Shown here piece after piece: positions 17,077 to 43,717 of a stretch of 50,806 nt of DNA. Numbering within the stretch: the stretch's first letter is position 1; every line of letters begins with the position of its first letter. The notes beneath the pieces were generated by a model that worked only from the letters and a program-made list of their open reading frames with translations, did not search any database and was not told where the DNA came from. This stretch comes from Methanobacteriota archaeon (GTDB lineage Archaea; Thermoplasmatota; Poseidoniia; Poseidoniales; Poseidoniaceae). Where the stretch lies: NCBI GenBank assembly GCA_002715725.1, contig PAZU01000006.1, forward strand, positions 1 through 50,806, read 5' to 3'. A program made the position numbers and the translations under genes.

Positions 17077-17160
17077 ACCCAAACGGCCAATATTATCACC
17101 TATCAATTCTGTGTTTGTCGCAGCGATGACTTCATGTTCGAAAGTGTCACGCCCCTGTTC

Positions 17161-18570
17161 ATGGCGCGAGACATAGTTTGGCATCCAACCGCATTTCGAA
17201 CACACACTCTAGGGCAGATTCAGAGTGATGGTGGAGAACTTGTTGGTAGTGAGGTGAAGGTTTGTGGTTACATGGAAGCAAACCGCGGGAAAGGCAAGAT
17301 TTGTTTCATGGATGTGAGAGATGGAACTGGTAAAGTTCAAGTTTTCTTGAAGCAAGGTGGAATTAGCGATGAAGAATTGGCTATTGCACAAGGGCTTTCA
17401 CGTGAATCTACCGTTCAGATTATTGGAGAAGTTGCACAAAAGCGACCGCCTAAAGTTGCTGAAGGAGAACCATTGCCTGCACCTACATACGAAGTGGTTG
17501 CATCAAAATTCACAGTTCTTGCACAAGCAGATACTCCTCTCCCATTAGGTGTTACTGACACGGTTACTATTGGGCTTGACACTCGTTTAGATAACCGATT
17601 TTTGGATCTTCGTAGAGCGCATGTCAATGCCATGTTTACACTTAGGGCTAGAGTTCTTGAGTATGGGAGACAGCATTTAATTACAGAGGGATTCAAAGAA
17701 ATCAATTCGCCAAAAATCATTGCTTCAGCATCAGAAGGTGGAACAAATTTGTTCCCAATGATGTATTTTGACACCCCTGCTTTCCTTTCACAAAGTCCAC
17801 AGTTGTACAAGCAGTTAACAGTTCTTGGCGGAATGGAGAGGGTCTTTGAAATTGGACCAGCTTTCCGCGCCGAAAAGCACGACACTTATCGACATTTGAA
17901 CGAATTCATTTCTTTCGATATCGAAGGTGCATGGATGAATGACGACGACGTTATGTGTGTTCAAGAAAGAATGATTCATCACATCTGGAAAATGGTTGCT
18001 GAAAACGATCAAGACCAAATCGAGATTATCAACGAATACAGAGAGAGCCAAGGCGATGAACCAATTACAGTTGAAGTTCCTAGCCTGCCGTTCCCTAGAA
18101 TCGAGTATTGTGATGCAATCAAGATGATACAAGATGCAGGAGTAGAAATCACATGGGGCGATGATATCGAATCATCTCACTGTGATATTATTGCTGCAAA
18201 ATATCCAGGATTTCATTTCCTTCCTCGCTGGCCTATGTCGATGAAACCCTTCTATATCCATCATGTTCCTGGGGAACTTGGTTCTACAGGAGAACAACTA
18301 TCGCGAGGATTTGATTTGAATTATGGCCGTGATGAAATGACAAGCGGTGGTCAAAGAGAACACAATGTAGATGTCCTCGAACAGAATCTACGCAATATGG
18401 AATTAAATCCAGCAGATTTCACATTTTACACAGACGGTTTCCGATATGGAGCACCTCCTCACGCAGGATGGGGTCTCGGTGTAGCACGATTGCTAATGGT
18501 TTTGACCGGTTCTAGAAATGTCCGTGAAACCGTTCTATTCCCAAGAGACCGTAGTAGAGTCACACCTTGA
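17161..18570 (+). CDS. aspS: Aspartyl-tRNA synthetase, archaeal/eukaryotic type
   Basis: FRTHTLGQI start region, OB-fold, RLDNRFLDLRR, class II motif 2 FEIGPAFRAE, GGQREH, and motif 3 GAPPHAGWGLGVARL. Start is ambiguous between 17134 and 17161. Confidence 0.9.
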   Translation: MARDIVWHPTAFRTHTLGQIQSDGGELVGSEVKVCGYMEANRGKGKICFMDVRDGTGKVQVFLKQGGISDEELAIAQGLSRESTVQIIGEVAQKRPPKVAEGEPLPAPTYEVVASKFTVLAQADTPLPLGVTDTVTIGLDTRLDNRFLDLRRAHVNAMFTLRARVLEYGRQHLITEGFKEINSPKIIASASEGGTNLFPMMYFDTPAFLSQSPQLYKQLTVLGGMERVFEIGPAFRAEKHDTYRHLNEFISFDIEGAWMNDDDVMCVQERMIHHIWKMVAENDQDQIEIINEYRESQGDEPITVEVPSLPFPRIEYCDAIKMIQDAGVEITWGDDIESSHCDIIAAKYPGFHFLPRWPMSMKPFYIHHVPGELGSTGEQLSRGFDLNYGRDEMTSGGQREHNVDVLEQNLRNMELNPADFTFYTDGFRYGAPPHAGWGLGVARLLMVLTGSRNVRETVLFPRDRSRVTP

Positions 18571-18595
18571 GTTGGTAAAGTTGCCAGTTGACCGC

Positions 18596-19327
18596 ATGCA
18601 ATGGGGTGCTGAAGATTGGCAGTTCGCTGATCTGTATATGCCAGATGAACCATCCCCGTATCAGAAAGATGAGGGCATCCCTTGTGTGATGCTGATTCAT
18701 GGTGGTTTTTGGAAGAAGAAATTCACTCTAGATTTGATGGCTCCAATTGCTGAAGATTTAGCTGAACAAGGAATTGCTGCATGGAATATCGAATTCAAAG
18801 GATGGGAGTCTGGCGATGAAGGAGTATGGATGGACACTCTTTCAGATGTGATGAGGGCCTGGGGCCAATTAGCATTATTACCGGGCATCGATATTGTGCG
18901 TTCGATGATTTTAGGACACTCCGCAGGAGGGCATTTAGCCCTGATGATGGCGGCGGTTGCAGAAAGAAAACCGTGGCTAACAATTGCACAAGCTCCTATA
19001 GCAGATATTGTAGCGGCAGATCACGCCAAATTATCTGACGACGGTGATGCAGTCCGCCGCTGGATGGGTTGTGCTCCTGAAGGAAACGAAGAGATGTGGC
19101 GGCGAGTAAATCCTGTTGATAATCCTCCCAAAACCTCAGTAGTTCTAATACATGGCAAGGCAGACGAAGATGTACCCTGGATTCAATCAGAATCCTACGC
19201 TAGAGCAATGAAAGCAAAGGGTGTTGAAATCCAAAAATTATGGTTACCTGGCGACCATTATTCCATCATTGATGTTGCCAGTGACGATTGGCTAACTCAA
19301 GTTGAAACAATCAGAGATTGGTTGTAA
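18596..19327 (+). CDS. Alpha/beta hydrolase, arylformamidase/esterase-like (HGGxW + GHSAGG)
   Basis: Oxyanion-hole motif VMLIHGGFW, nucleophile elbow LGHSAGGHLA, and late IHGKADEDVP / GDHYS (Asp/His). Alternative starts: ATG 18518 (53-nt overlap with aspS) or TTG 18572 (1 nt after the aspS stop). Confidence 0.8.
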   Translation: MQWGAEDWQFADLYMPDEPSPYQKDEGIPCVMLIHGGFWKKKFTLDLMAPIAEDLAEQGIAAWNIEFKGWESGDEGVWMDTLSDVMRAWGQLALLPGIDIVRSMILGHSAGGHLALMMAAVAERKPWLTIAQAPIADIVAADHAKLSDDGDAVRRWMGCAPEGNEEMWRRVNPVDNPPKTSVVLIHGKADEDVPWIQSESYARAMKAKGVEIQKLWLPGDHYSIIDVASDDWLTQVETIRDWL

Positions 19328-19340
19328 GGTTCAAAACCTT
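19326..19340 (+). terminator. Triloop hairpin overlapping the hydrolase stop codon
   Basis: AAGGTT-CAA-AACCTT, a 6-bp perfect stem starting within the TAA stop (19325-19327). Confidence 0.2.
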
Positions 19341-19358
19341 GCGCTGCTTGGCGTTGTT

Positions 19359-20144
19359 ATGGACTGGCTAGGAGACGACTTCCCTTTCTCAACTTCTGCT
19401 CTCTCTGGAAAGCACGCAATTGTATGTGGTGCTTCCAAAGGAATTGGGGCAGCAACTGCAAAAATGCTTGCTAAAGCAGGGGCAAAAGTTACTGCAGTCA
19501 GTAGGGATCCTCACAATTTAGTTGCTACTCTCGAGGGAGAGGGTCACACCGGAATTAGCCTTGATTTGGAGAATCAAGAAGCAATTGGCAAATTCATTTC
19601 TTCAATTGAAGAATGCCATATTCTAATCAATAATGCCGCAGGTCCTCCTGGCGGACCTTTGCTAGAAAATGACATCGAAGATTTCGACGCGCCGTTTAAG
19701 CGACACTTGCACGCTTCACACACTTTGGTCAAAGGCGTAGTGCCTATCATGGAGAAAGCAGGTATGGGCAGAATAGTGAACATCATCTCGACATCGGTTA
19801 GAGAGCCAATCCCAAACATTGGACTTTCAAACACATTGAGGGGCGCGATGGCATCTTGGGCTAAGTCCCTTTCACGCGAACTTCCCACCTGTATTACAAT
19901 CAACAATGTGCTTCCTGGATTTACTGATACCGACCGCTTAGGGTCACTGGCGTCCTCGATTAATTCCAAAACAGGAAAAAGCATTGAGGATATTCACGCC
20001 GGTTGGATGTCACAAGTTCCGATTGAAAGGCTGATTGACCCACTTGAAACCGGAGCTGCTGTCGCTTACCTTTGCATGCCTATTTCTGGCGGTATACGAG
20101 GCGTTTCACTAGCAGTAGATGGCGGCCGTATGCGCTCAATTTGA
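19359..20144 (+). CDS. Short-chain dehydrogenase/reductase family protein
   Basis: Rossmann motif VCGASKGIGAATAKMLAKAG, NNAAG, and IVNIISTS. At the position where YxxxK is expected I read SNTLR, so the catalytic tetrad looks non-canonical. Confidence 0.8.
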   Translation: MDWLGDDFPFSTSALSGKHAIVCGASKGIGAATAKMLAKAGAKVTAVSRDPHNLVATLEGEGHTGISLDLENQEAIGKFISSIEECHILINNAAGPPGGPLLENDIEDFDAPFKRHLHASHTLVKGVVPIMEKAGMGRIVNIISTSVREPIPNIGLSNTLRGAMASWAKSLSRELPTCITINNVLPGFTDTDRLGSLASSINSKTGKSIEDIHAGWMSQVPIERLIDPLETGAAVAYLCMPISGGIRGVSLAVDGGRMRSI

Positions 20145-20162
20145 GGTGATGATTTGGCGGAA

Positions 20163-20954
20163 ATGAATCAAGCACAAGCAGAGGAACTCATGGATATGTT
20201 TGCCGACGGCAAATTGATTGAATCGATAAACACGAGTCTAGCATTGCATCTGGTAGATCTTGCTCGAGAGTTAGGTAGAGATGCGTTAGTAGGCAGACTG
20301 TTAGATCATGCTGCGAAAGTTTCTGACAATCCTGAGGACCAGGGTTGGTGTCAATTCGAATTGCTTAAACATGAAGGTGCGAGCAAAGATGAATTAATCG
20401 GATTAGGTGTTCAATCAGAGAAAGAAGAACTTCCAGGTCTTGCAGCGGGGATTTTCCATCATGTTTCACTGATGTCTTTGGGTAGTGAAGAAGCGGGCCT
20501 ATTCGCTAATCGCTCGATGAGGCTGCGTGAAGAAGCGGATGATTTGGAGGGTATGATTTACGGGCATGCACTTTTGGCACATATTGCCAAATCTGAAGGA
20601 GATTTTGAGAAAAGTCAACTTCATCTCCAAAAAAGATTGGAAATTATTCCTGAACCAGAGAAATTTGAGAGGATGGAAGCTTTAGCAGATTTAGCCCATT
20701 CACATTCTTCGTTGGGGGAATTAGAACAAGCGCAAGCATTCTTAATCGATTCATTAGAAATTGCAATTGAATTACAAGAGTTATCTGGAATTTTAGTTGC
20801 TAGATGGGGTCTTGCAGACCTTGCCGAAATTTCGAATCAACCAGATGAAGCGATGGTCCAATTATCTGATATCATGACAGCATTCATGGAAGCAGGTGCA
20901 TTAGTACCCGAGCTTGTTCGAGAACGTATTTCGAAATTAACCGCGCAACAGTGA
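20163..20954 (+). CDS. Hypothetical helical-repeat (TPR-like) protein
   Basis: All-helical, Leu/Ala/Glu-rich protein with TPR-like repeats (ALADLAHSHSSLGELEQAQAFLIDSLEIA). The tracked ORF starts at TTG 20154; the first ATG is 20163. Confidence 0.55.
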   Translation: MNQAQAEELMDMFADGKLIESINTSLALHLVDLARELGRDALVGRLLDHAAKVSDNPEDQGWCQFELLKHEGASKDELIGLGVQSEKEELPGLAAGIFHHVSLMSLGSEEAGLFANRSMRLREEADDLEGMIYGHALLAHIAKSEGDFEKSQLHLQKRLEIIPEPEKFERMEALADLAHSHSSLGELEQAQAFLIDSLEIAIELQELSGILVARWGLADLAEISNQPDEAMVQLSDIMTAFMEAGALVPELVRERISKLTAQQ

Positions 20955-20970
20955 TGTTGATACATCGAGC

Positions 20971-20991
20971 CCCTCTCCCTTAGGGAGAGGG
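20971..20991 (+). promoter_or_regulatory. Perfect 9-bp triloop hairpin whose 3' arm is the SD-like sequence of the next gene
   Basis: CCCTCTCCC-TTA-GGGAGAGGG. The 3' arm ends 6 nt before the GTG start at 20997. Confidence 0.35.
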
Positions 20992-20996
20992 ATTAG

Positions 20997-22208
20997 GTGG
21001 AGTTCGACATATTCTTCTCAATATCGCAGACTCCAGACCACAATGGATTCACTCCTAGTGAATCCGAAATGTTCGCTAATTATTATGCTCAATTAGAAGC
21101 AGCAGACCGTTTAGGATTCGGTGTTGCTTGGATTGCACAAGCACATTTGTCCACCCAAACTCAACAAGAGAACTCGAGTCCAGTAGTTCCTCATTGGAAG
21201 GGCGAAGTTGGTCTTTGCACTGATTTCTGCCAGTTGGCACTAGAATCATTTAGACGTACTAGCAGAATCGATGTAGGTTCTGCTGTTGTAAGTATTCTTG
21301 CCAGTGGCGGCCCTATTGCCCAAGCCGAAAGAATTGCTAACACAGTACAATTCCTTTCACACATGGATGTCAATCGTAAGTTGCACGTGGGATTCAGTGC
21401 AGGTAGGTTTGAATTCATGGCACGCCCATACGGTGTCGTTCCCAGGAATGTTGTAGAAGAGGCGGCTTGGCCGGCATTACGTGCTCAAATTTTCATGGAA
21501 GCAAGTGAGATTTTTCTTAGATTATTGAGAGGCGATACTATCAGGTCTGATGATATTAGAGAGACAGTAATGAATAGAGATAATTTCCGTTCTGATGAAG
21601 ATTGGAATAAAGTTCAAAATGCTGCGGGTGGCTTACCCGATGAAATCGAAATTGACAGACGGTACCAGTTCGAGGAAATCTCAATCGTTCCAAAAACATG
21701 GCCCAGAAATCAATTGGAATTAGTCGCTGGGACACATGATCCTAGAGCCCAAGAATTCGTCAACAAATTCATGCCAGTAAAGGTTTTCAATCTATCCATA
21801 ACTTCGCCCGAAGTGATTGATTCCACCCATGAGAGGATGAGTAAATTTTTCCACAAAGATGGCGGGGAGTGGCAAAGAAGAGATATGCCTCGTACAACAT
21901 TTGTTTTCCTCAATGCGGAGGAAGGGCTATCTCCTGAGGAACAATCGATTGCAGCACATGAAGAAGCTCGACTTGCTTTGGGTGAATATTGGAAGGCACT
22001 AGAAGGAACTCTTGACCCTTCGAAAGTGGAGAAAGCGGCAGATAACGCACTTATCGGTAATCCTGAGCAAGTCGCCAAGCAAGTTTTGGAAAGATTCCAT
22101 CCTGATGACCGTTTGATGTGCTGGTTCGATTTCTTCAATCACGATAGCGAACGAGTGGTTCGAAATATGGAAGCTTGGTGGAGCGAAGTCGTACCACTGC
22201 TGGGGTGA
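20997..22208 (+). CDS. Luciferase-like (LLM class) flavin-dependent oxidoreductase
   Basis: MEFDIFFSIS..., LGFGVAWIAQAHL (the family's GFD..W..EHH region) and C-terminal LIGNPEQVAKQVLER are typical of bacterial-luciferase-family TIM barrels. GTG start. Confidence 0.78.
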   Translation: MEFDIFFSISQTPDHNGFTPSESEMFANYYAQLEAADRLGFGVAWIAQAHLSTQTQQENSSPVVPHWKGEVGLCTDFCQLALESFRRTSRIDVGSAVVSILASGGPIAQAERIANTVQFLSHMDVNRKLHVGFSAGRFEFMARPYGVVPRNVVEEAAWPALRAQIFMEASEIFLRLLRGDTIRSDDIRETVMNRDNFRSDEDWNKVQNAAGGLPDEIEIDRRYQFEEISIVPKTWPRNQLELVAGTHDPRAQEFVNKFMPVKVFNLSITSPEVIDSTHERMSKFFHKDGGEWQRRDMPRTTFVFLNAEEGLSPEEQSIAAHEEARLALGEYWKALEGTLDPSKVEKAADNALIGNPEQVAKQVLERFHPDDRLMCWFDFFNHDSERVVRNMEAWWSEVVPLLG

Positions 22209-22212
22209 AATT

Positions 22213-23328
22213 TTGGATTTAAGGCACGACAAAAATTCTGCAGTTGCCCCTGGTAAACCAGGTTCTGCAATTTATCCAGATTCTCCACTTGGAGAGGATA
22301 TCGAAGGTATACCAACTGGCAGAGATGTAGAGTGGGAGCCATTGGTAGATTATCGTAGGAATGGAGTTTCTGAAACCACCATTCATGGCGCAGTAGCATG
22401 GTGCCATGGCGATGAGGTAATACATTCATTCGGTGGAAATGTTCTATGTTATGGAAGGTCAATGATGAAGCCATTCATGTTGAAGGCGTTCACAAAAGAG
22501 TTGGAAAACCATTCATGGGAGCAAAAAGCAATTTCTGTCGCTAGTCATAACGGGGATACTGAACACGTTGCTGCTGCTCAATCTATGCTCTCTGAGGCTG
22601 AATGGCCACTGATGCTTACCCCTGTGGATGTGCCACTCATTCAATTCGGTAGGCAGGTTAGAAGACCTAGGCGCTGGTATCATACCTGCAGCGGCGAGCA
22701 TGCTGCAATACTTGCAGGATGTAGGGCCAAAGGTTGGAATCGAGCGGGGTATACTCTTCCTACACACAAAGTATTCCACGCATACATGGAACAACTTAGA
22801 AGATTTCTTGGCAAGGATTGGAATCCACAAAGGATAGCTAAGGATGGGTGCGGTCTGCCAACAGTTTCGAACACTGTTGCAGAATTAGCCAAAATTTACG
22901 CAGGATTAGTTCAGGACAAAGATTCAGATTGGATTTGGGAAGCCATGTGCAAGAATCCTGATTTAGTTGGTGGATTCAATAGATTAGACTCGACAATTTT
23001 GAAAATCGGTAATGGTAAAGTTATCGCAAAAGAGGGTGCGGATGGCCTACTTGGAATGGCTATCGAGCACCCTGATTATCCGAATGGATTAGGAATTGTT
23101 GTTAAAATTGCACACGGCTGGAATTCACAGGCTACTTGGTATATCGCTAGAGCAATTTTAGGATGCTTAGGAATTGAATTACGAAACCCATATCCGCTGA
23201 ATAAACAAAAAGCGTTTATTGTCCCAGGAATAGTTCCAGATTCTCTACGCGGTGTACTAGAAACCATTCCGACGTGGGATGAGTGGGATCCGGACCAAGA
23301 CCGCTGGCATTACGAGGTGGATGCATGA
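22213..23328 (+). CDS. Asparaginase II family (Rhizobium-type, PF06089-like) amidohydrolase
   Basis: Collinear matches to the family as I recall it: TIHGAVAW, RSMMKPFM, ASHNGDTEH, CSGEHAAILAGCRA, KDGCGLPT, NPDLVGG, KEGADGLLG and GIVVKIAHG. TTG start at 22213 is uncertain. The stop overlaps the ALDH start (ATGA). Confidence 0.8.
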   Translation: MDLRHDKNSAVAPGKPGSAIYPDSPLGEDIEGIPTGRDVEWEPLVDYRRNGVSETTIHGAVAWCHGDEVIHSFGGNVLCYGRSMMKPFMLKAFTKELENHSWEQKAISVASHNGDTEHVAAAQSMLSEAEWPLMLTPVDVPLIQFGRQVRRPRRWYHTCSGEHAAILAGCRAKGWNRAGYTLPTHKVFHAYMEQLRRFLGKDWNPQRIAKDGCGLPTVSNTVAELAKIYAGLVQDKDSDWIWEAMCKNPDLVGGFNRLDSTILKIGNGKVIAKEGADGLLGMAIEHPDYPNGLGIVVKIAHGWNSQATWYIARAILGCLGIELRNPYPLNKQKAFIVPGIVPDSLRGVLETIPTWDEWDPDQDRWHYEVDA

Positions 23329-24704
23329 TCCAAGTCGAGAATTACATCGGTGGTGAATTCGTTACTTTGGGTGAAGATTTTGACGACATCTCACCGCTAG
23401 ATTTCTCGGTTATTGCCAAAGTTCCTCGAACTAGAAATGTCGATGATGCGGTTGATGCCGCTAAGAAGGCTCAACCTATGTGGGGTGCACTTAGTATCGA
23501 ACAGAGATGTGATTGGTTGGACAAAATTGCAAATGAACTCGAGAATCAAATCGAAGAAATTGCTCGTTTGGAATCAATGGATACTGGAAAACCACACCAT
23601 GTTGCATTGAATGTAGATGCATCTAGGTCTGTAAATAATTTCAGATTTTTTGCAGAGTTTGGACGCAACATGGAATCACAGACTTTCGAAATGTCAGATG
23701 CAACAAATTATGTCGTAAGAAAACCGATTGGTATTGTTGGATTAATTTCACCTTGGAATCTCCCATTGTACCTGCTATCTTGGAAGATAGCACCTGCCTT
23801 GTTAATGGGCAATTCAATAGTTGCTAAGCCAAGCGAAATCACGCCATTAACAGCACATTTCCTAGCAAATATTTGTTCCCAAGTTGGCCTACCTGCTGGT
23901 GTTTTGAACATTGTTCACGGTTATGGGCCAGAAGTAGGGCAAGCCATTGTTGAACATCCTGAAATCAAAGCAATATCCTTCACTGGCGGTACTTCAACCG
24001 GCAAGATAGTGGCTGCAACCGCCGCACCTATGTTCAAGAAATTAAGTCTTGAACTTGGTGGTAAGAATGCATCAATTGTATTGGAAGATGCTGATTTAGA
24101 CGTCGCGGTACCAGGTGTATTGCGAGCATCATTTCTCAACTCAGGGCAAATTTGCTTGTGCGGTTCACGTGTTTTGGTACATTCATCAATCTATGATGAA
24201 TTCATGGAAAGGTATCTCCAAGAATTGAAGAGTTTCGAAATAGGTCCAGTAATTAGTGACGAACACCGTTCAAAGGTTGTATCGTACATCGATTTGGCCA
24301 AGCAAGAAGGAGGTAATATCCTGGCCGGTGGAAATATTCCCGATAAGGTGGGTGCTTGGCTTGAGCCAACAGTGATCTCTGGACTTTCTCACACCTCTAG
24401 AACAGCCACAGAAGAAATCTTTGGACCAGTAGTTACTGTTCACCCATTCGATTCAGATGAAGAAGCGATTGAAATGGCAAACAGTACCCAATATGGGTTG
24501 GCAGGAAGTGTTTGGTCGAAGCGAAAAGGACGAAAAGTTGCAGAAAAGATTGATTCAGGTATGGTTTGGGTTAACACATGGCTGCATAGAGATTTACGCG
24601 TCCCATTCGGAGGAGTCAAAGACAGCGGCGTAGGGCGTGAAGGAGGAATGTGGTCTCTCGGTTTCTTCTCAGAAGCAGTCAATATTTGCGTCATGGAAGA
24701 TTGA
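23325..24704 (+). CDS. NAD(P)-dependent aldehyde dehydrogenase, 2-hydroxy/2-aminomuconic-semialdehyde dehydrogenase-like
   Basis: MIQVENYIGGEFV N-terminus, SPWNLPL, catalytic ELGGKNA and GQICLCGSR, and EEIFGPV. The LCGSR context and N-terminus resemble the XylG/DmpC/AmnC clade (recollection). The start ATG at 23325 overlaps the upstream stop. Confidence 0.88.
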   Translation: MIQVENYIGGEFVTLGEDFDDISPLDFSVIAKVPRTRNVDDAVDAAKKAQPMWGALSIEQRCDWLDKIANELENQIEEIARLESMDTGKPHHVALNVDASRSVNNFRFFAEFGRNMESQTFEMSDATNYVVRKPIGIVGLISPWNLPLYLLSWKIAPALLMGNSIVAKPSEITPLTAHFLANICSQVGLPAGVLNIVHGYGPEVGQAIVEHPEIKAISFTGGTSTGKIVAATAAPMFKKLSLELGGKNASIVLEDADLDVAVPGVLRASFLNSGQICLCGSRVLVHSSIYDEFMERYLQELKSFEIGPVISDEHRSKVVSYIDLAKQEGGNILAGGNIPDKVGAWLEPTVISGLSHTSRTATEEIFGPVVTVHPFDSDEEAIEMANSTQYGLAGSVWSKRKGRKVAEKIDSGMVWVNTWLHRDLRVPFGGVKDSGVGREGGMWSLGFFSEAVNICVMED

Positions 24705-24741
24705 AGGCTGAGATACCTGTCGGAGTGTTGGAGGCAAACTC

Positions 24742-25557
24742 ATGTCAGTCCATGCAAACGCTCGCAAAGTGACAACCCACACTCTTCAAGAAATGAAGAG
24801 AGCCGGTGAAAAAATCACAATGCTAACCGCCTATGACTTCAGTTTAGCTAAGTTGGTTGATAGAGGCGGCGTAGACGTAATTTTGGTAGGAGATTCCGCA
24901 TCAAACGTCATGGCTGGTAGAGATACAACTGTGCCAATGAGTCTCGAGCACATGATCTACCATGCTCAATGTGTTGAGCGTGCAGTCGATAGAGCATTGA
25001 TTGTAGTCGATATGCCATTCGGTTCTTACCAAGGAAATTCCGCAATTGCATTAGAGAGCGCTATTCGAATCATGAAAGAATCGGGTGGGCATGCAGTCAA
25101 GTTAGAAGGTGGTGCTGAAATTGTTGAAAGTATTCAGAGAATTTTGACAGCCGGTATCCCAGTTATGGGGCACTTGGGACTAACTCCTCAATCGATTTAC
25201 AAATTTGGAACTTATACTGTTCGTGCTAAAGAGGAAGAAGAGGCATCCAAATTGATTGCGGATGCTAAGTTACTGGAAGAAGCAGGTTGTTTCGCAGTAG
25301 TTCTAGAGAAAATACCTGCTCATTTGGCTAAACAGGTAAGTGAAGCCTTGTCGATACCAACTATTGGAATCGGTGCTGGACAGAATTGTGACGGTCAGGT
25401 TTTGGTACTGCACGATATGCTAGGAATCACTACAGATTTCAGCCCGAGATTCCTGCGCAGATATCTTGACTTGGAGAGTAAAATTACTGGAGCTGTAGAA
25501 CAGTATTGTGAAGATGTTAGAACTGGAGACTTCCCTAACGAAGAAGAATCTTACTGA
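24742..25557 (+). CDS. panB: 3-methyl-2-oxobutanoate hydroxymethyltransferase (ketopantoate hydroxymethyltransferase)
   Basis: [46 protein letters not shown] and LEKIP are canonical PanB motifs. Confidence 0.92.
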
Positions 25558-26018
25558 GTAAGCGTGGCAATTAACATTGCACCAGGTAGAATACAGGATG
25601 CAATTCCGAAGCCGTGCCATATCCCGTAACGGAATGGAGGATGGTTTTGTTTTGACCAAGAAGCGCATTGCCAAATCCAAATTAGAAATGGAATTGCAAT
25701 GTTGAAATAATTAGGACCTAATACCCAAAATACAGCCATTGGGATGCAAACTACTGCAACTCCAAAAGCATGCTCTCTTATGTCTCCAGAATCAGTAAGT
25801 ATGGCGAGTAATGGAGCGAAAACCACCGATGCAACTAATGCGATCATCATCGGAGGGAATTTATTTTCATTCAGAGTAAGTACACTAACAGCAACTAGGG
25901 AAATAGCGAATATCGAAGGCCACACCACGTGGCGCAACTTCAAGTCAGGTCTCTCTCCCATATTTTGGGCCAAGAGTAGCCGATGAATAGAAGATGCGGA
26001 ACCTTTTGGTCGTGTCAT
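25551..26018 (-). CDS. Hypothetical 4-TM membrane protein
   Basis: A 155-aa hydrophobic ORF fills the only minus-strand gap in the cluster. Its 3' end overlaps panB by 7 nt. Its tracked ATG overlaps the amnB-like ATG (CATG), so the true start may be an internal Met. No family recognised. Confidence 0.45.
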
Positions 26019-26910
26019 GGCGAAGGGGAGTATTGTTGCTGGCTGCCTTGCACCGCATCCACCACATTTGGTTTATGCAGATAACCCTGAGCAAAATGAA
26101 CCGGTCTCAGAAGGGGGCTGGGAGCAACTTAGATGGGGTTATGAGAGGTTGCGAGAATCTCTGGAAGATGTTGATTATGACGTTATTGTAATTCTTTCTC
26201 CTCACTGGCAAACATATGTTGGTACACACTTCATCGGTGTAGAGAAGTGTTCTTCCAAGAGTGTAGACCCGGTTTTTCCAAATCTATTCCGTTTTAATTA
26301 TGATTTGGCAATAGATGTTGAATTAGCAGAGGCAATCCATGACCAAGCTAAATCTGGAGGAATGTCAGTCAAGATGATGACTAATCCCGATTTCAGAGTT
26401 GACTATGGAACGATTGTTTCTTGTCATATGGTCAGGCCTGAATGGGATAAACCGATAGTATCCATTTCTTCTAATCGTAGTCTGTCCTACTATTCAGTAG
26501 AGGTAATGCAGGAAATGATGATTGAACTCGGAAAATCCACTGCCAGAGCGATAGAAGAGAGTGGTAAGAAGTGTCTCTTGATTGCAAGTAATTCACTCTC
26601 ACATCGTCATTTCGTAACAGAAACTAATCCTCCCGAAGATATGAGCAAAGAACACATTACAAGTCATGCAATGCATTTGTGGGATATGCGAATGATTGAG
26701 ATGATGCGCCAAGGAAAATCTCAGCAAATTATCAATGAGATGCCTGAATTCTGTGAACAAGCAATTGCAGAAACAGATGGAGGTGCACTCACTTGGCTGT
26801 TATCGGCGATGGGTGTTCCTAGTGAGCCTGCAATCTTGCATGGCTATGGAACAATTATTGGAACTGGTAATGCAATTATGGAATGGCCATGTCGAAACTG
26901 GGGTGCTTGA
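26017..26910 (+). CDS. LigB-superfamily (class III) extradiol dioxygenase, 2-aminophenol 1,6-dioxygenase beta-subunit-like
   Basis: GCLAPHPPHLVYADNPEQNEP, ILSPHW, SVDPVFPNLFRFNY, DVELAEA, DFRVDYGT, PEDMSKEH, WDMRMIEMMRQGK and GTGNAIMEW closely follow what I remember of AmnB/NbzCb. Metal-ligand His residues are present (HPPH, SPHW). Confidence 0.85.
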   Translation: MAKGSIVAGCLAPHPPHLVYADNPEQNEPVSEGGWEQLRWGYERLRESLEDVDYDVIVILSPHWQTYVGTHFIGVEKCSSKSVDPVFPNLFRFNYDLAIDVELAEAIHDQAKSGGMSVKMMTNPDFRVDYGTIVSCHMVRPEWDKPIVSISSNRSLSYYSVEVMQEMMIELGKSTARAIEESGKKCLLIASNSLSHRHFVTETNPPEDMSKEHITSHAMHLWDMRMIEMMRQGKSQQIINEMPEFCEQAIAETDGGALTWLLSAMGVPSEPAILHGYGTIIGTGNAIMEWPCRNWGA

Positions 26911-28293
26911 ATGACAGGCGAGGTAATCAAATCGCTAATTGTGCCTGCGCATCCCCATCCAGTTTTATGTCCAGAAAAAAACGAAGGTTGGCAAAGAGTT
27001 CGGGATGCTTATGATGGTGCCCGAAAACAAATCGAAGAGAGCGATGCAGACCTGATTATTGTCTATTCAACTCTGTGGCCTAGTGTGATAGGGCACCAAA
27101 TTCAAGCAGATCCCAACCCAGAATGGGTGATGGTAGATGCGGACTTCCACGATTTGGGGAGTATTCACTATTCATTGAAAATTGATACAGAATTTGCGGA
27201 AGCATGGAATCAGGCCAATATCAAACGTGGTTTAGAGTCTAGAACAGTTGCTTATCATGGCTTTCCAGTTGATGTCGGTTCAGTTGTTGCTTTAGAACTA
27301 CTAAATCCTAATAATAGAATTCCAGCAGTAATCTGCTCTACGAATGTCTACTCTAACAGAGCCGAGACTACAGTACTCGCCAAAGCATGTATGGATGTAG
27401 TAAAGGCTCAAGGCAAAAAGGTGGTTGCAGTTTCCGTAATGTCACTATCAAACAGAATGTTCACAGAACCGATTGAGCCCCACGAAGACAGGATTCACTC
27501 GCTGAAAGATGACGAGTGGAATCGCAAAATTTTGGAATTCCTATCTGAAGGCCGCTTGGAAGATGTCGGACAACTTAGCCGAACAATCCATGACCAAATC
27601 CGAGTTAAGAAAGTTGTAGCATTCAAACCAATGTGGTGGCTTTCTGCCATGAATGATAATCGTAATGATTTGACAGGACAGGTACTGGCCTATGAACCAA
27701 TTCATGGAGCAGGAGCAGCAGTTGTTGTATTAGATCCGGAGTCTAATGGAACCGGCGATAAGGAATACGATGAGGATGATGTCGAATTCTATGGCGGTGA
27801 CAGAAATGTGTTAGAATCAGACCTAGAAGAGAATGGAACTGTTAACTCGGGTCCAGCATTGTATGACCCCGTTGAAGGTGCTAATGCGGTTAACACCAGT
27901 AAAGCGCCTAAACCAGTTGGGGCCTACCCCCATGCAAGAAGAGAAGGCGACCTGATTTATCTGTCAGGAGTTGGTCCAAGGCAGCCAGGAGATAATTCGA
28001 TACCGGGTGGGCCTATCAAAGACTCAAATGGCAATCCTTTGAATTATGACATTAAAGCTCAAACAAGAGCAGTGGTAGATAATATTGCTAGAATATTAGA
28101 AGAGGCCGGTTCTTCACTAGAGAAAGTTATTGACGTAACCTCCTTTTTAGTAGATATGGATCGTGATTTTTCAGGATACAATGAAGTTTGGGCTGAAACA
28201 CTCGGTAAAGTAGGGCCTACTCGTACAACACTTGCAATTAGAGCATTACCAACACCTATTGCTGTAGAGATGAAAGTAATCGCCAAAGTTTGA
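26911..28293 (+). CDS. Fusion: AmnA-like (non-catalytic LigB-fold alpha subunit) + acidic linker + RidA/YjgF-family deaminase domain
   Basis: N-terminal ~285 aa are LigB-like, but VYSTLW replaces SPHW (second His ligand lost, as in alpha subunits); YHGFPVD and EDRIHSLKDDEWNRKILEF are also present. The C-terminal ~125 aa are RidA-like (KPVGAYPHARREGDLIYLSGVGP ... GPTRTTLAIRALPTPIAVEMKVIA). The ATG directly follows the upstream TGA. Confidence 0.82.
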   Translation: MTGEVIKSLIVPAHPHPVLCPEKNEGWQRVRDAYDGARKQIEESDADLIIVYSTLWPSVIGHQIQADPNPEWVMVDADFHDLGSIHYSLKIDTEFAEAWNQANIKRGLESRTVAYHGFPVDVGSVVALELLNPNNRIPAVICSTNVYSNRAETTVLAKACMDVVKAQGKKVVAVSVMSLSNRMFTEPIEPHEDRIHSLKDDEWNRKILEFLSEGRLEDVGQLSRTIHDQIRVKKVVAFKPMWWLSAMNDNRNDLTGQVLAYEPIHGAGAAVVVLDPESNGTGDKEYDEDDVEFYGGDRNVLESDLEENGTVNSGPALYDPVEGANAVNTSKAPKPVGAYPHARREGDLIYLSGVGPRQPGDNSIPGGPIKDSNGNPLNYDIKAQTRAVVDNIARILEEAGSSLEKVIDVTSFLVDMDRDFSGYNEVWAETLGKVGPTRTTLAIRALPTPIAVEMKVIAKV

Positions 28294-28420
28294 TTTCCGC
28301 TATCCGGGGTTTTTCGGCGTCAATGTGTAGTAAACAATAACTACCAATTGCGCTTGATTAGCAATAACGGTGTAGTACCGGTCGTAAAAAGGAAATTTGT
28401 TCGCCACAGGAGAGTTTTCA

Positions 28421-29848
28421 ATGGACATCAAATCTACAACTGGCAAGTTGCTAAAAGGCGACATTTCAGGGGTTGTATCTGACGTAAAATCTCAAATTAA
28501 ACGCTCTTTGAGTCTAATCGGAGTTATCATCGTTACAGTTGCAGCAAGCATTGGCGCTGGACTGTTTGTGTTGCCATCATTTGCTGTAGCAATAATGGGG
28601 CCAGGTATTTGGTTGGCCTTCTTGATTGCAGGAATTGTGTTCCTGCCCGGTGCGCTTTCTAAATCAGAATTGTCCTCGGCTATGCCGGTCAATGGCGGTG
28701 CTTATGTCTATGTTGAGCGTTCATTCGGTCCATTGGTTGGAACAATTAGTGGGCTGGGGCTATGGGCCTCCTTTTTGCTGAAATCTGCTTTCGCATTGAT
28801 TGGTTTTTCAGCATATATGTACGCGGTAACAAACTATCTCGACATTTCAACCAATACAACTCTTGTAATTATGGCAGCGCTAGTTCTAATTACTGTTCTG
28901 AACATTTTTGGAATCAAAAAAGTGAAGGCATTTCAAACACCAATTCTAGCGCTTACAACCGCTGTAATCCTAATCATTTGTTTGATTCAATTATTCGATG
29001 CGAACATCGATTTTTCTCGTCCGATTGATGGTGCATTCGATGTATCGAGAAATGACCCGATTTTGGTAGCCGAATCTGCGGCATTAGTCTTTGTTGCATA
29101 TGCAGGCATATACAAGGCTGGAGCCATTGGTGGAGAAGTTAAGGAACCAGAAAAGAACCTGCCTAAGGGCATGTTAATCTCTCTCTTACTGATTACTCTT
29201 CTCTATGTGATTATTACTTTCATCATGATGGCATCGGTTGATGTTGAAACTATGCTTAATTCTGATGGTTCAGCTAGGGAAGATCCGATTTTTGCTTTTG
29301 TCGATGTAATAGCATCTACTAATATTGGGTTAATGGTGGCATTATTAGCTGTTCTAACCATGGTCTCAGGTGCTTTATCTGGACTATTGGCAGCATCTCG
29401 TTTCCTGTTTGGGATGGCAAAGGACAGTTTGTTGCCAGGAACCTTAGGAGAAACAAACAACAAATTTGGAACTCCTCACTGGGCGATAATTATTACAGGT
29501 ATTACTATGGCAATTTCCATAATTACACTCCCTGTAAAGGATGTAGCCAAATTAGCATCCGGTTTCCAAATAATGGTTATTGTTGCATTGAATATCAGTG
29601 TGGTTATTTTACGAAGTGAAAATCCAAAACACGATTGGTACAAACCTACTTTCAAATCTCCACTGTTCCCATGGGTTCAGATTATTGGTACAGTTATAGG
29701 TGGTTACTTGGTATTCATCATGGGAGAGAAAGCGATTATTGGAGCAGTTGCAGCCATCGTAATTGGTGTCGCTACTTACTACATATATGGCAAAAAGAAT
29801 CACCAACTAAAACAATCAATGAGCGTTTCTTCTAATGAAGAAGAATGA
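28421..29848 (+). CDS. APC-superfamily amino acid/polyamine permease
   Basis: About 12 TM segments with family-typical VIIVTVAASIGAGLFVLPS and ELSSAMPVNGGAYVYV. ATG 28421 is preceded by AGGAGAG. The tracked ORF starts at TTG 28397. Confidence 0.88.
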   Translation: MDIKSTTGKLLKGDISGVVSDVKSQIKRSLSLIGVIIVTVAASIGAGLFVLPSFAVAIMGPGIWLAFLIAGIVFLPGALSKSELSSAMPVNGGAYVYVERSFGPLVGTISGLGLWASFLLKSAFALIGFSAYMYAVTNYLDISTNTTLVIMAALVLITVLNIFGIKKVKAFQTPILALTTAVILIICLIQLFDANIDFSRPIDGAFDVSRNDPILVAESAALVFVAYAGIYKAGAIGGEVKEPEKNLPKGMLISLLLITLLYVIITFIMMASVDVETMLNSDGSAREDPIFAFVDVIASTNIGLMVALLAVLTMVSGALSGLLAASRFLFGMAKDSLLPGTLGETNNKFGTPHWAIIITGITMAISIITLPVKDVAKLASGFQIMVIVALNISVVILRSENPKHDWYKPTFKSPLFPWVQIIGTVIGGYLVFIMGEKAIIGAVAAIVIGVATYYIYGKKNHQLKQSMSVSSNEEE

Positions 29849-32437
29849 CTATGACATTCTAGTCCATTCACCAGATTCACTAACTAGCCAAGATGTTAAT
29901 TGTCCATCCGAGTCAATATACCATCCTGTCTTTCCTTGTTCAGTACCAGGAGCGGCTTGCATTACTCCTGTTCTCTTTGCTTCAGCAGCTAATCTTGCTC
30001 GCAAATCCTCCTTAGATTCAGATGGCTGTTCTTCTGTTGTTTCTGCAACTACAGGTACAGGTTCACTCTTCACTTCAGGTTCTTCAATGATTTCTTCCTG
30101 ATGGGTTTCTTCTGCAATTGAATCTTCTTCTTCGTATTCTTCATACTCATCTTCCCAGTAATCAACATCATCTTGATCACCTTTCAATCTGCGAATTAAT
30201 ACTACCATTATGGCAATGAAAAGGAATACGATAATCGAGACCATTGTTAAGGCGGTATTTGAGTCACCAAGACCCCCACCAAACAATACTGCATCAACAT
30301 CGAAGAAACGTTGTGCAACTAAGTCATCCCAGTAAGCATTGCATGATTGAGACTGCCCTGATTGGTCGATTGATACCTCATATGTGTCTCCTGCTAAGTG
30401 CGTGGCAGGTCCAGTAGTACACTTGATTGTGACATCCGCAGGTGGAACTTCTATCCTATTTCCGGCTTGGTCAATTGCATGAATTCTGATAATCATGCTA
30501 CTACCTTCTTCTGGGTTTTGCTCCGGAATATCTGCAAGTAGTCGAACTGCTTGGCCTGGCGAAACAACCACAGCAATGTCTTGTGTTGCAGAACCAGTTG
30601 TTAATCGCAAGTTCCATTCCCCTGCCTCTCCTCCTGTTACAACCCAGTATCCATCTCCCTTCGAAGATGGAGAAACAACACCTTGTGGGTCTTCAAACTC
30701 AAATGTAATATCGGATGCTAAAGCGACATTTCCATGAACATCTAATGTAGAGATTTTGATCTCAACATTTTCGGCACTAGCTACTTCTATTCCATCATCA
30801 AAATCAGTAGAAATATGTCTCGCAGTACCTGCAATAACTTCAACATCTGTAATTGCGAAAACTCCTTGTGACATCGCTCGGATTTCGTGCATTCCGATAC
30901 TTGATGGAGCCCAACGGTCACCTGCAAGGCGAATTTCCATAGTCATATCAATATCATCAATGACCCAAGTAACCAATACTTCGTCGATGACATTACCATA
31001 TTCATCTTCGAAAATCGGTTGAAGTTCTAAAACTCCGTCCGAGGGCACCCTTGTACCGCTTTCTGGCAGAACGATTCTTGCTAATTCTCCAGATGTTACA
31101 TGGACAATAGATTCAACTTCATGAACAAGTTGCGTTTCATTGTCAAACCAGGTGGCAGAGATTGTGAAATTGCCTATGGGGCCTGGTCTGAGTTCCATCC
31201 AATCGCCTTGGTCAACAGCAGATAATTCACTAGGAATTGTCCAAGCACCGTCAACAGCACGTTGATTTCCAGCAGCATCGTAAGCTGAGATAGATGCAAC
31301 AACTAATTCTCCGGATTTTAGCACATTTTCGGATAACAAAATCTCGATTCCAGTAACTTCACCTTGAATGACATTGACTTGCATTGTTGCAGAGAATCCT
31401 TGGTCATTAACTCCAATTGTCCAATCACCAATCTTGGATGGAATCCAAACTACTGAATCACCCTCCATTGAAAGAGAGCCAGTTGGAACCGTCCAGTTTG
31501 CGAGAGGGAGTACGACTTCACCTGAATTCCCAAGAACATCAGTTCGAATCGCTGACAGTGTCACAGGAGAACCGGTTCGTGCTTGAGTAACATCCATTTC
31601 GATATCCAGCCCAGTCGCTTGTGCTGGCAAAACGCGAATCACTCCACTGCCGAATGCTCCCGATGTACTGTTTACGCTGATATTCCACACTCCCGGTGCT
31701 CCTCCAAAGTAAATCCCCGATGGCGAAATTGAACCATTTTCAGAATTCCATGTCAATTCTCCAGCTTTCGATATTCCCACTTCATTGCCTCTAGCATCTT
31801 TGGCAACAGGGATAATGTGTATGGTGTTGCCACTTTGTACAGTTAGGCCAAATGGTATTTCTAGGGAAGTTGGATTGCCCGGGACTACATTGAATACTAC
31901 CTGAATTTCCAATTCAAGATAGATTATTCTCATCACAGCACTACCAACTTCATCGGGTTTCCATGTCATGTTGTCATAGTCGATTTCTCCGTTTTGACAT
32001 CTCCATGTTAAATCACCAGATACAGGATTGCCTGCCCGATCTACTAAAGTTGCGTTAAGAGATATTGTATCATCAATACTCACTTCTGTTAGATTAAATC
32101 CAGATTGAATTCCGACTGGCCAGCCTGCAGTTACTTGAACATTAGTCGTTGAATTGACAGTTCCACTAGTTGCAGTGATAATTGTTTGACCAACCATGCC
32201 TGGAGTAAATAGGCCATCAGAATCGATAGTTCCAGAACTTGCAGACCAAGTTATTTGTTCGTTGATTGGGTTACCTGAGTTGTCTTTGACCACAGCTGTA
32301 AATCTGATGGCTTGATCAGCACTCACAGTTTGTTGATGCGAATCTATGTCAATACTTGCAGGGCTAGATGCCAAAACCGGTGATGAAATTTGAACAAGCA
32401 ACAGGGTGACCAGTAAGGAAAGAATTGCCTTTCTCAC
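29849..32437 (-). CDS. Surface protein with tandem Big_2-like Ig domains, C-terminal TM and long acidic cytoplasmic tail
   Basis: Signal peptide (LLVTLLLVQISSPVLASS). Repeated Ig-like units follow the pattern ..F.A...D..GN.I.....W..S.G.I...G.F. TM (MVSIIVFLFIAIMVVLI), 114-aa tail ending TGWYIDSDGQLTSWLVSESGEWTRMS. GTG start. Confidence 0.85.
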   Translation of the reverse strand: MRKAILSLLVTLLLVQISSPVLASSPASIDIDSHQQTVSADQAIRFTAVVKDNSGNPINEQITWSASSGTIDSDGLFTPGMVGQTIITATSGTVNSTTNVQVTAGWPVGIQSGFNLTEVSIDDTISLNATLVDRAGNPVSGDLTWRCQNGEIDYDNMTWKPDEVGSAVMRIIYLELEIQVVFNVVPGNPTSLEIPFGLTVQSGNTIHIIPVAKDARGNEVGISKAGELTWNSENGSISPSGIYFGGAPGVWNISVNSTSGAFGSGVIRVLPAQATGLDIEMDVTQARTGSPVTLSAIRTDVLGNSGEVVLPLANWTVPTGSLSMEGDSVVWIPSKIGDWTIGVNDQGFSATMQVNVIQGEVTGIEILLSENVLKSGELVVASISAYDAAGNQRAVDGAWTIPSELSAVDQGDWMELRPGPIGNFTISATWFDNETQLVHEVESIVHVTSGELARIVLPESGTRVPSDGVLELQPIFEDEYGNVIDEVLVTWVIDDIDMTMEIRLAGDRWAPSSIGMHEIRAMSQGVFAITDVEVIAGTARHISTDFDDGIEVASAENVEIKISTLDVHGNVALASDITFEFEDPQGVVSPSSKGDGYWVVTGGEAGEWNLRLTTGSATQDIAVVVSPGQAVRLLADIPEQNPEEGSSMIIRIHAIDQAGNRIEVPPADVTIKCTTGPATHLAGDTYEVSIDQSGQSQSCNAYWDDLVAQRFFDVDAVLFGGGLGDSNTALTMVSIIVFLFIAIMVVLIRRLKGDQDDVDYWEDEYEEYEEEDSIAEETHQEEIIEEPEVKSEPVPVVAETTEEQPSESKEDLRARLAAEAKRTGVMQAAPGTEQGKTGWYIDSDGQLTSWLVSESGEWTRMS

Positions 32438-43588: not shown

Positions 43589-43717
43589 GCCGGGGTGGCG
43601 TAGTTGGTGGCGCGTCGGACTCATAGGGCAGTTCTAAGGAACTTTTTGTGACGTACCAAAGCCCCTTCACATGTCTGAGACATCCGAAGGTCGCGGGTTC
43701 AAGCCCCGCTCCCGGCA
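43589..43717 (+). tRNA. tRNA with CAT anticodon (elongator Met or Ile2), containing a 56-nt intron
   Basis: Hand-folded cloverleaf: acceptor GCCGGGG/TCCCGGC (G7-U66), D arm GCGT-AGTTGGTG-GCGC, anticodon stem TCGGA/TCCGA with loop CT-CAT-A, T arm GCGGG-TTCAAGC-CCCGC, discriminator A. G1-C72 argues against an initiator. Confidence 0.9.
43626..43681 (+). other. tRNA intron at canonical 37/38 position with bulge-helix-bulge splice motif
   Basis: The central 4-bp helix CTCA (nt 32-35 of the tRNA) pairs with TGAG (43676-43679). The flanking 3-nt bulges TA|G and AC|A each carry a splice site. The outer helix GGCA (43627-43630) pairs with TGTC (43672-43675). Confidence 0.8.

Follow-up and report, generated by a model that had tools for sequence, protein, structure and literature searches.

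What does a planktonic archaeon do with genes that resemble those for cleaving aminophenols? The question is posed by a gene run in a member of the Poseidoniaceae, in the order Poseidoniales or marine group II (MGII), archaea whose presumed diet is protein and peptides. We analysed positions 1–50,806 of contig PAZU01000006.1 (assembly GCA_002715725.1; hereafter the window), where the original prediction, made from the DNA letters alone, had placed an aminophenol-type meta-cleavage module at 18518–29848. Our answer, to which we give a slightly better than even chance, is that the region is the Poseidoniales copy of a module of Bacteria and Archaea that breaks tryptophan down along an altered kynurenine pathway via 2-aminophenol. 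Open reading frames (ORFs) of at least 120 amino acids (aa) in the window were scanned for known protein families; one ORF of 3018 aa was outside that scan.

A predicted aminophenol dioxygenase, deaminase and semialdehyde dehydrogenase

The AmnB-like gene (26017–26910, plus strand) encodes a protein with a LigB domain (85 bits; Pfam). Its best solved matches are beta subunits of 2-aminophenol 1,6-dioxygenase (8ihg_A, 2e-113; 3vsg_B, 5e-110), with 55–57% identity, whereas other LigB classes match far less well (HpaD type, 4e-08; DOPA dioxygenases, at least 3e-03). Residues His14, His63, Glu252, His196 and Tyr130 align with His13, His62, Glu251, His195 and Tyr129 of CnbCb, the first three of which we take to be the 2-His-1-carboxylate iron ligands and the last two the catalytic His and Tyr. 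In a neighbour-joining tree, AmnB proteins fall into three groups, one from MGII, one from the bacterial clusters described below and one of characterised AmnB/CnbCb enzymes, which share 52–64% mutual identity and lie far from the alpha subunits.

With a gap of 0 nt there follows a fusion gene encoding 460 aa (LigB, 49.5 bits; Ribonuc_L-PSP, 87 bits), whose relatives range from 457 to 574 aa. The fusion comprises an AmnA-like non-catalytic alpha domain (residues 1–275; 26911–27735, plus strand), a linker of some 47 residues, acidic and of low complexity (27736–27876), and a RidA domain (27877–28293) that resembles 2-aminomuconate deaminase. The alpha domain matches CnbCa (3vsg_A) at 4e-43 and 34% identity. 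Other residues stand in place of its second iron-binding His and its catalytic His, with STLW for SPHW and SLSNR for SLSHRH; to judge from the alignment, this loss of the iron site is the pattern expected of AmnA. AmnB and the AmnA domain are thus predicted to form an intact aminophenol-type extradiol dioxygenase. The RidA domain is closer to 2-aminomuconate deaminase (6izh, 2.3e-27, 44% identity) than to generic RidA proteins (3.4e-20). It has in common with 6izh an insertion of 12–13 residues that is missing from 2csl, 2dyy and 1x25, and it keeps the Arg of GPTRTT. A 2026 preprint shows the 2-aminomuconate deaminase clade to be functionally distinct from generic RidA, and we assign the fused domain, on these sequence features, to the deaminase type.

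The third component, an aldehyde dehydrogenase (ALDH; 23325–24704, plus strand; Aldedh, 514 bits), belongs to the 2-aminomuconate/2-hydroxymuconate semialdehyde dehydrogenase clade and resembles AmnC (7bzv, 2e-137, 47% identity) and NbaE (4i1w, 5e-134). The seven solved structures that match it best (2e-137 to 4e-129) are without exception 2-aminomuconate-semialdehyde dehydrogenases, with the next class at 8.5e-112. Motifs SPWN, ELGGK, CLCGS, SRSVNNFR and RDLRVPFGG are present, with the catalytic Cys, Glu and Asn and two Arg residues that presumably contact the substrate carboxylate. We predict an enzyme of the 2-aminomuconate-semialdehyde dehydrogenase type.

Candidates for dioxygenation, semialdehyde oxidation and deamination had all been named beforehand, with the LigB pair set in the aminophenol dioxygenase clade and the ALDH in that of the muconic semialdehyde enzymes, apart from succinate-semialdehyde dehydrogenases. 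The structural matches and the identities agree with each of these placements, and the tree agrees with that of AmnB. The window had also been said to lack the lower meta-pathway, and none of its enzymes occurs among the scanned ORFs.

The database names of AmnB differ. Its MGII orthologues are called ‘tRNA U-34 5-methylaminomethyl-2-thiouridine biosynthesis protein’ at NCBI and aminophenol dioxygenase beta subunit at JGI; the former looks like a misannotation.

The same genes cluster in Bacteria

A fusion-based representative search led to a full-length bacterial fusion, P0123, at 42% identity, and a search for its homologues (E up to 1e-30) yielded 1553 proteins. All of the best 120 of these 1553 combine LigB with RidA, and the homologues listed include the cultured Oligoflexus tunisiensis and metagenome-assembled genomes (MAGs) of Bdellovibrionales.

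Two sets of clusters emerged. In the first (O. tunisiensis and four contigs), genes for a short-chain dehydrogenase/reductase (SDR), a luciferase-like protein (LLM), an Asparaginase_II-family hydrolase (AsnII), ALDH, AmnB and AmnA::RidA lie tightly spaced on one strand. The SDR orthologue stands immediately upstream of LLM (L081, L082, L084, L087 and L089), and the next gene after the cluster encodes a PF04199 (KynB-type arylformamidase) protein in 4/5 contigs. In the second set, the order is tryptophan 2,3-dioxygenase (TDO), LLM, SNase, Asparaginase_II, ALDH, DUF4920, AmnB, AmnA::RidA and PF04199. In three of these contigs (L086, L088 and L090) the LLM orthologue comes straight after TDO and is translationally coupled to it. 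Genes for FAA hydrolases lie divergently next to TDO, two in L090 and one, truncated, in L088; those of L090 score best on DmpH (245 bits) and DmpE (326 bits). The SDR is confined to clusters without DmpH/E genes nearby.

Identity to the window proteins is 35–44% for SDR, 42–50% for LLM, 57–66% for AsnII, 43–48% for ALDH and 53–57% for AmnB. These five genes and AmnA::RidA are inherited as one cluster across Bacteria and Archaea. The genes for aspartyl-tRNA synthetase (aspS), ketopantoate hydroxymethyltransferase (panB), the tetratricopeptide-repeat (TPR)-like protein, the membrane ORF, the permease and the alpha/beta hydrolase (abH) of the window are missing from all bacterial clusters. So are kynurenine 3-monooxygenase (KMO), kynureninase, the cupin 3-hydroxyanthranilate dioxygenase (HAAO) and aminocarboxymuconate semialdehyde decarboxylase (ACMSD).

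These clusters bear on a simpler explanation, that the archaeon acquired a stand-alone upper pathway of the amn/nbz/cnb type by horizontal transfer, for the detoxification or use of exogenous aminophenols, and that LLM, AsnII, SDR and abH are unrelated to it. The high identity to AmnB-, AmnC- and AmnD-type proteins would suit this, as would five MGII loci (L022, L023, L059, L063 and L072) in which AmnB, the fusion and the permease form a trio beside different upstream genes. We nevertheless think it improbable, because in bacteria, too, AmnB and the fusion are found with these four further genes, at 35–66% identity, TDO and KynB lie within bacterial clusters, and core genes of a marine archaeal order would be an odd home for a pollutant pathway.

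In NCBIfam, the PF04199 genes match a single model, that of tryptophan arylformamidase (TIGR03035), at 193–214 bits against a cut-off of 223, and the bacterial TDO scores 273 bits on TIGR03036. The PF04199 family also holds isatin hydrolases, and these, the resemblance of LLM and SDR to indole-oxidation gene pairs and KynB scores just under the equivalog cut-off could point to another N-heterocycle or arylamine of the indole, isatin, oxindole or quinoline type, with PF04199 acting like an isatin hydrolase and AsnII as a lactamase. The translational coupling of TDO to LLM in three contigs and the arylformamidase model as sole match speak for tryptophan instead, and we give the N-heterocycle idea very little weight.

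Further genes surround the bacterial clusters. The contigs L086, L088, L090 and L091 and the context of P0396 carry an SNase gene between LLM and AsnII and a DUF4920 gene before AmnB; on L085, a contig without the upstream half, DUF4920 alone is seen. The TDO-linked contigs, L085 included, have a set of acyl-CoA carboxylase and methylmalonyl-CoA mutase genes about 2.5 kb downstream. Two Oligoflexus-type contigs (L081, 13718–17737; L089, 14006–17406) hold ferredoxin, molybdopterin oxidoreductase and FdhD genes about 2 kb past the cluster, possibly as its partner in redox reactions or in dealing with formate. The L081 region also has a nitroreductase gene, and a minus-strand cellulase gene lies between the cluster and the FdhD group.

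A proposed route from tryptophan to 2-aminophenol

Since LLM and AsnII always travel with the aminophenol segment, they are candidates to join that segment to TDO. In the scheme that we propose as the most economical one, TDO, encoded elsewhere in MGII genomes, would convert tryptophan to N-formylkynurenine, which would be deformylated, by KynB in bacteria and by the candidate abH in MGII. LLM would then carry out a Baeyer–Villiger reaction on (N-formyl)kynurenine, placing an oxygen between its ring and the carbonyl of its side chain; type II Baeyer–Villiger monooxygenases occur in the LLM family. The product would be a beta-aspartyl 2-aminophenyl ester or, if the acyl group shifts, an N4-aryl-asparagine, which the asparaginase-like hydrolase would split into L-aspartate and 2-aminophenol. 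AmnAB would open the ring to give 2-aminomuconate semialdehyde, ALDH would oxidise this to 2-aminomuconate, and the RidA domain would release ammonium to leave 2-oxohex-3-enedioate. More speculatively, the SDR may handle 2-oxohex-3-enedioate where DmpH/DmpE genes are missing. The permease may bring in the amino-acid substrate. In total, C11 would yield formate, C4 and C6. KMO, kynureninase, HAAO and ACMSD would be unneeded because the scheme arrives at 2-aminophenol, a known substrate of the AmnB family, and by analogy each step without an assigned enzyme would call on chemistry for which the family concerned has precedent.

The original prediction had suggested nitrogen scavenging from an imported N-acylated or amidated aromatic amine. 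The N-acylated amine fits N-formylkynurenine, given TDO and KynB in bacterial clusters; an imported, xenobiotic-like nitrogen source is less likely than tryptophan catabolism.

LLM (20997–22208, plus strand) is highly divergent, a marginal Pfam Bac_luciferase match with weak separate C-terminal matches; its homologue search gave, among the 120 matches listed, only MGII sequences at least 85% identical. We propose it as a candidate flavin monooxygenase acting on (N-formyl)kynurenine. AsnII (22213–23328, plus strand; Asparaginase_II, 165 bits) has the fold of class-3, Rhizobium etli-type asparaginases and matches ReAIV/ReAV at 1.5e-17. Both Ser-Lys tandems of class 3 L-asparaginases are intact, with Ser83, Lys86, Ser111 and Lys273 invariant in 13 orthologues and ReAIV. 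The Cys-Lys-Cys zinc site keeps Cys159 and Cys213 and lacks its Lys, which is Glu162 here. Across the family, residue 162 is Glu in MGII and in TDO-linked bacterial contigs and Lys in Oligoflexus-type clusters. The substrate is probably not free asparagine, because the gene is always embedded in an aromatic-amine cluster, and we propose AsnII as a candidate beta-aspartyl amide or ester hydrolase.

The deformylation step is assigned by position. The abH gene (18581–19327, plus strand) lies in a longest ORF from 18518, and its TTG start at 18581 agrees with the start of its relatives in an alignment. It scores on BD-FAE (62 bits) and Peptidase_S9 (54 bits) and has HGGFW and GHSAGG motifs with conserved Asp and His. 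The label ‘arylformamidase-like’ given to it earlier finds no backing in the sequence: the closest solved relative is a carboxylesterase (9x6a, 2e-21), and a profile of the protein returned no kynurenine formamidase among seven PDB matches with E up to 1e-6. By location it is the sole formamidase candidate in the MGII block. The SDR gene, of the adh_short_C2 type (109 bits; 19302–20144, plus strand), probably starts at ATG 19359.

A link to tryptophan could also follow a more canonical logic, in which LLM is a KMO analogue, AsnII or abH replaces kynureninase, the AmnAB-like enzyme cuts 3-hydroxyanthranilate or 3-hydroxykynurenine, and ALDH and the deaminase act on carboxylated products that decarboxylate spontaneously. 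It is compatible with the joining of TDO and KynB to the bacterial cluster and with MGII lists that give no ACMSD, HAAO, KMO or KynU names, and it has a precedent in 4-amino-3-hydroxybenzoate catabolism, where deamination is followed by non-enzymatic decarboxylation. We still regard it as unlikely. Carbon–carbon bond cleavage is not a known reaction of Ser-Lys amidohydrolases and aromatic hydroxylation is atypical of LLM; moreover, AmnB is 52–64% identical to 2-aminophenol enzymes and the ALDH is closest to enzymes of the decarboxylated semialdehyde.

Gene order within Poseidoniales

An AmnB scan over one genome per GTDB species found 157 relatives, and the following counts refer to the best 80 of these 157. 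These 80 loci carry Poseidoniales, MGII-family or generic Euryarchaeota, Methanobacteriota or Thermoplasmatota MAG titles; among them are a single-cell genome with 99% identity and CM001443, the first genome of MG-II. AmnA::RidA follows AmnB in 78/80 loci, and the permease follows the fusion in 55 of the 63 with enough downstream DNA. Upstream, panB is present in 68/71 loci, and among those reaching far enough, the LLM–AsnII–ALDH triplet is found in 46 of 48 and abH together with SDR in 38 of 42. The minus-strand membrane ORF is kept in 63/80. The triplet is inverted as a single block in seven loci, the AmnB–fusion pair lacks the usual upstream block in six (L022, L023, L031, L059, L063 and L072), and unrelated insertions occur in relatives (an Exo_endo_phos gene and a LON-substrate-binding gene). 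The original prediction had looked to relatives for synteny, and this is what they show: the order is kept across Poseidoniales, and six of the genes cluster in bacteria as well.

Such order might persist without any common function, in a slowly rearranging housekeeping block, and the aspS, panB, metK, LON-substrate-binding and Exo_endo_phos genes within the MGII block are what one would then expect. This is contradicted by the clustering of six genes in Bacteria without housekeeping genes, and we attach next to no credence to it. Because they are missing from all bacterial clusters, aspS, panB and the TPR gene are probably bystanders; the minus-strand membrane ORF is one.

A xenobiotic island was rejected too. 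GC content is 0.41–0.47 throughout the window, with no compositional anomaly, and conservation of the genes extends across the order. A Rut-like pyrimidine pathway, which would combine LLM, an amidohydrolase, RidA, an alpha/beta hydrolase and a permease, was discarded: the RutC score was 29.5 bits (cut-off 169), RutA was not among the LLM matches, and such a pathway has no place for the LigB pair and the ALDH.

MGII gene content in the literature

According to the abstracts of MGII papers, these are the most abundant planktonic archaea of surface waters. The ‘MGII Core’ functions of Tully (2019) include kynA/TDO2, amnB, amnD, dmpC/xylG/praB, nadA and nadC. In the supplements of that study that were searched by name, there is no entry for kynB, kynU, arylformamidase, kynurenine, oxalocrotonate, hexenedioate or oxoadipate, and KMO, HAAO and ACMSD names are likewise not found in the MGII supplementary lists. 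The accessible part of the MGII bin gene table of Damashek (2021) lists K00453 (TDO), K15059 and K15067, and shows no K07130, K01556, K00486, K00452 or K03392. On these published lists, MGII would have an orphan TDO and an orphan segment for aminophenol cleavage, semialdehyde oxidation and deamination, the second of which is confirmed here by the 80 species loci. A role in NAD biosynthesis, with quinolinate formed via 3-hydroxyanthranilate, was rejected: nadA and nadC are in the MGII core, and the ALDH and deaminase would divert carbon from quinolinate.

Neither dioxygenase nor aminophenol, muconate or tryptophan is named anywhere in the main text of Tully, Rinke or Damashek, and tryptophan disposal in MGII is not described in these comparative papers. 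Our literature searches found nothing relevant on aminophenol in MGII or Poseidoniales, nor anything joining kynurenine to amnB, Baeyer–Villiger or luciferase-like enzymes. The claim that the module had gone undescribed in planktonic archaea stands as far as the main texts go; the genes themselves are in the MGII core supplementary tables.

Points against the tryptophan reading

Several observations weigh against the proposed tryptophan route. No TDO or KynB gene lies less than 10 kb from AmnB, whether in the window or among the 80 MGII loci, and the presence of TDO in MGII is taken from KEGG labels assigned by others. The missing kynurenine-gene names are only suggestive, because the labels are automated and the lists incomplete. 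MGII synteny by itself is weak evidence of a common function, since the block mixes clearly unrelated genes. The bacterial KynB and TDO scores fall under the NCBIfam equivalog cut-offs, as does the ALDH on its best-scoring family, the 2-hydroxymuconic semialdehyde dehydrogenase equivalog TIGR03216 (537 bits; cut-off 693). No kynurenine formamidase of the eukaryote type (the alpha/beta hydrolases AFMID and Bna7) or otherwise appears among the best 60/64 single-sequence matches of abH in the PDB. For LLM, the match to Bac_luciferase (PF00296) is 28.8 bits against a cut-off of 27.9 and covers the N-terminal half only, a profile of 15 orthologues finds luciferase-like chains in the PDB weakly (E = 0.0014), a single-sequence AlphaFold model was unusable (pLDDT 34), and no flavin reductase is evident in the gene cluster.

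With these points counted, the tryptophan module keeps the slight advantage of probability that we gave it at the outset. A broader claim, that the Baeyer–Villiger kynurenine route is the main means of tryptophan degradation in MGII and in Oligoflexia-type bacteria and the source of the ‘xenobiotic’ amn genes, we put forward tentatively and as rather doubtful. Were the pathway real, a textbook route would gain a new branch, and two groups of proteins would gain functions, a divergent luciferase-like family and the class-3 asparaginase fold, of which little is understood. It would also hint at where, in nature, the 2-aminophenol dioxygenases of pollutant degradation came from. Database names, such as the tRNA-modification name of MGII AmnB at NCBI, would be corrected. 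As a cultured carrier, O. tunisiensis makes the pathway directly testable.

Layout and neighbouring genes in the window

Eight same-strand genes from aspS to panB are separated by −4 to 42 nt, given plausible start codons: +10 (from TTG 18581) or +25 nt before abH, +31 before SDR, +9 or +18 before TPR, +42 before LLM, +4 before AsnII, −4 before ALDH (ATG 23325) and +37 before panB. Our recomputed coordinates and gaps agree with those reported earlier, and Pfam and NCBIfam return the same families, save for the arylformamidase label (TPR is weak and Bac_luciferase marginal). The genes and their order likewise stand; the run itself is broken by a minus-strand ORF that had been omitted. This conserved membrane ORF (25551–26018; 155 aa; no Pfam match) fills the 459 nt between panB and AmnB and so sets AmnB, AmnA::RidA and the permease apart from the upstream run as a unit. 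Its start may be an internal Met at about 25961, because its ATG and that of AmnB share one CATG.

The TPR-like gene (20154–20954, plus strand), an MGII-specific insert, has TPR matches that are weak, at or under the Pfam cut-offs, and 38–98% identity within MGII. The panB gene (24742–25557, plus strand) scores 386 bits in Pfam and 337 bits on TIGR00222, over the cut-off. The gene for an APC-family amino-acid permease (28397–29848, plus strand; AA_permease_2, 154 bits; Pfam and NCBIfam) is an MGII-specific neighbour and may be a candidate importer of an amino-acid substrate.

Elsewhere in the window, metK (15847–17205, minus strand) is of the bacterial/eukaryal MAT type in this archaeon (Pfam S-AdoMet_synt N, M and C), and the longest metK and aspS ORFs overlap head to head at 17134–17205. 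An intron-containing tRNA gene at 43589–43717 (plus strand) spans 129 nt, against a 71-position model; it scored 52.4 bits with Rfam and was missed by ARAGORN. TFIIB, LonB and RFC genes are also present and, like this tRNA gene, fit an archaeal source. Four very large minus-strand ORFs, at 8250–11633 (1127 aa), 12517–15789 (1090 aa), 29849–32437 (862 aa) and 32485–41541 (3018 aa), show little or nothing in the way of Pfam domains (Big_1, NPCBM_assoc); the large ORFs probably encode surface or secreted proteins.

Comparison with known systems

The module is apparently a variant that joins aminophenol meta-cleavage to the kynurenine pathway through a middle section not described before. Its ring-cleavage end has the same AmnB-to-AmnA order as the amn clusters (amnBACDFEHG of Pseudomonas sp. 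AP-3, Burkholderia xenovorans LB400), cnb/nbz and the actinobacterial ARO locus, with a catalytic beta and a non-catalytic alpha subunit, an AmnC-type ALDH and a RidA-family 2-aminomuconate deaminase, the step specific to this pathway. Unlike in the amn, cnb and nbz clusters, the deaminase is fused to AmnA, no lower pathway of the DmpH/E/G/F type occurs in the window, and LLM, asparaginase-fold and SDR genes are added and conserved. The host is archaeal, the genes belong to the core of an order and not to a catabolic island, and the bacterial versions are joined to TDO and KynB.

AsnII shares its fold family and four catalytic residues with the class 3 L-asparaginases ReAV and ReAIV of R. etli (PF06089), but the similarity is modest and the zinc-ligand Lys is Glu in MGII and the TDO-linked contigs. 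The proposed chemistry has a parallel in the 4-hydroxyacetophenone pathway, which uses the Baeyer–Villiger monooxygenase hapE, the esterase hapD and ring cleavage by hapCD. There, as would be the case here, an aryl ketone becomes an aryl ester, then a phenol whose ring is cleaved by a dioxygenase; the enzyme families differ, an amino acid would be the starting compound here, and we infer the parallel from the logic of the steps.

The bacterial kynurenine pathway (kynA, kynB and kynU with genes of the nbaC–F type, as in Burkholderia cenocepacia) likewise begins with TDO and KynB and ends with 2-aminomuconate-semialdehyde dehydrogenase and a RidA-type deaminase. Among the scanned ORFs of the window there is no KynB, KMO, kynureninase, HAAO or ACMSD. 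In place of the last four, the module has a LigB-type aminophenol dioxygenase, a luciferase-like protein and an asparaginase-fold hydrolase.

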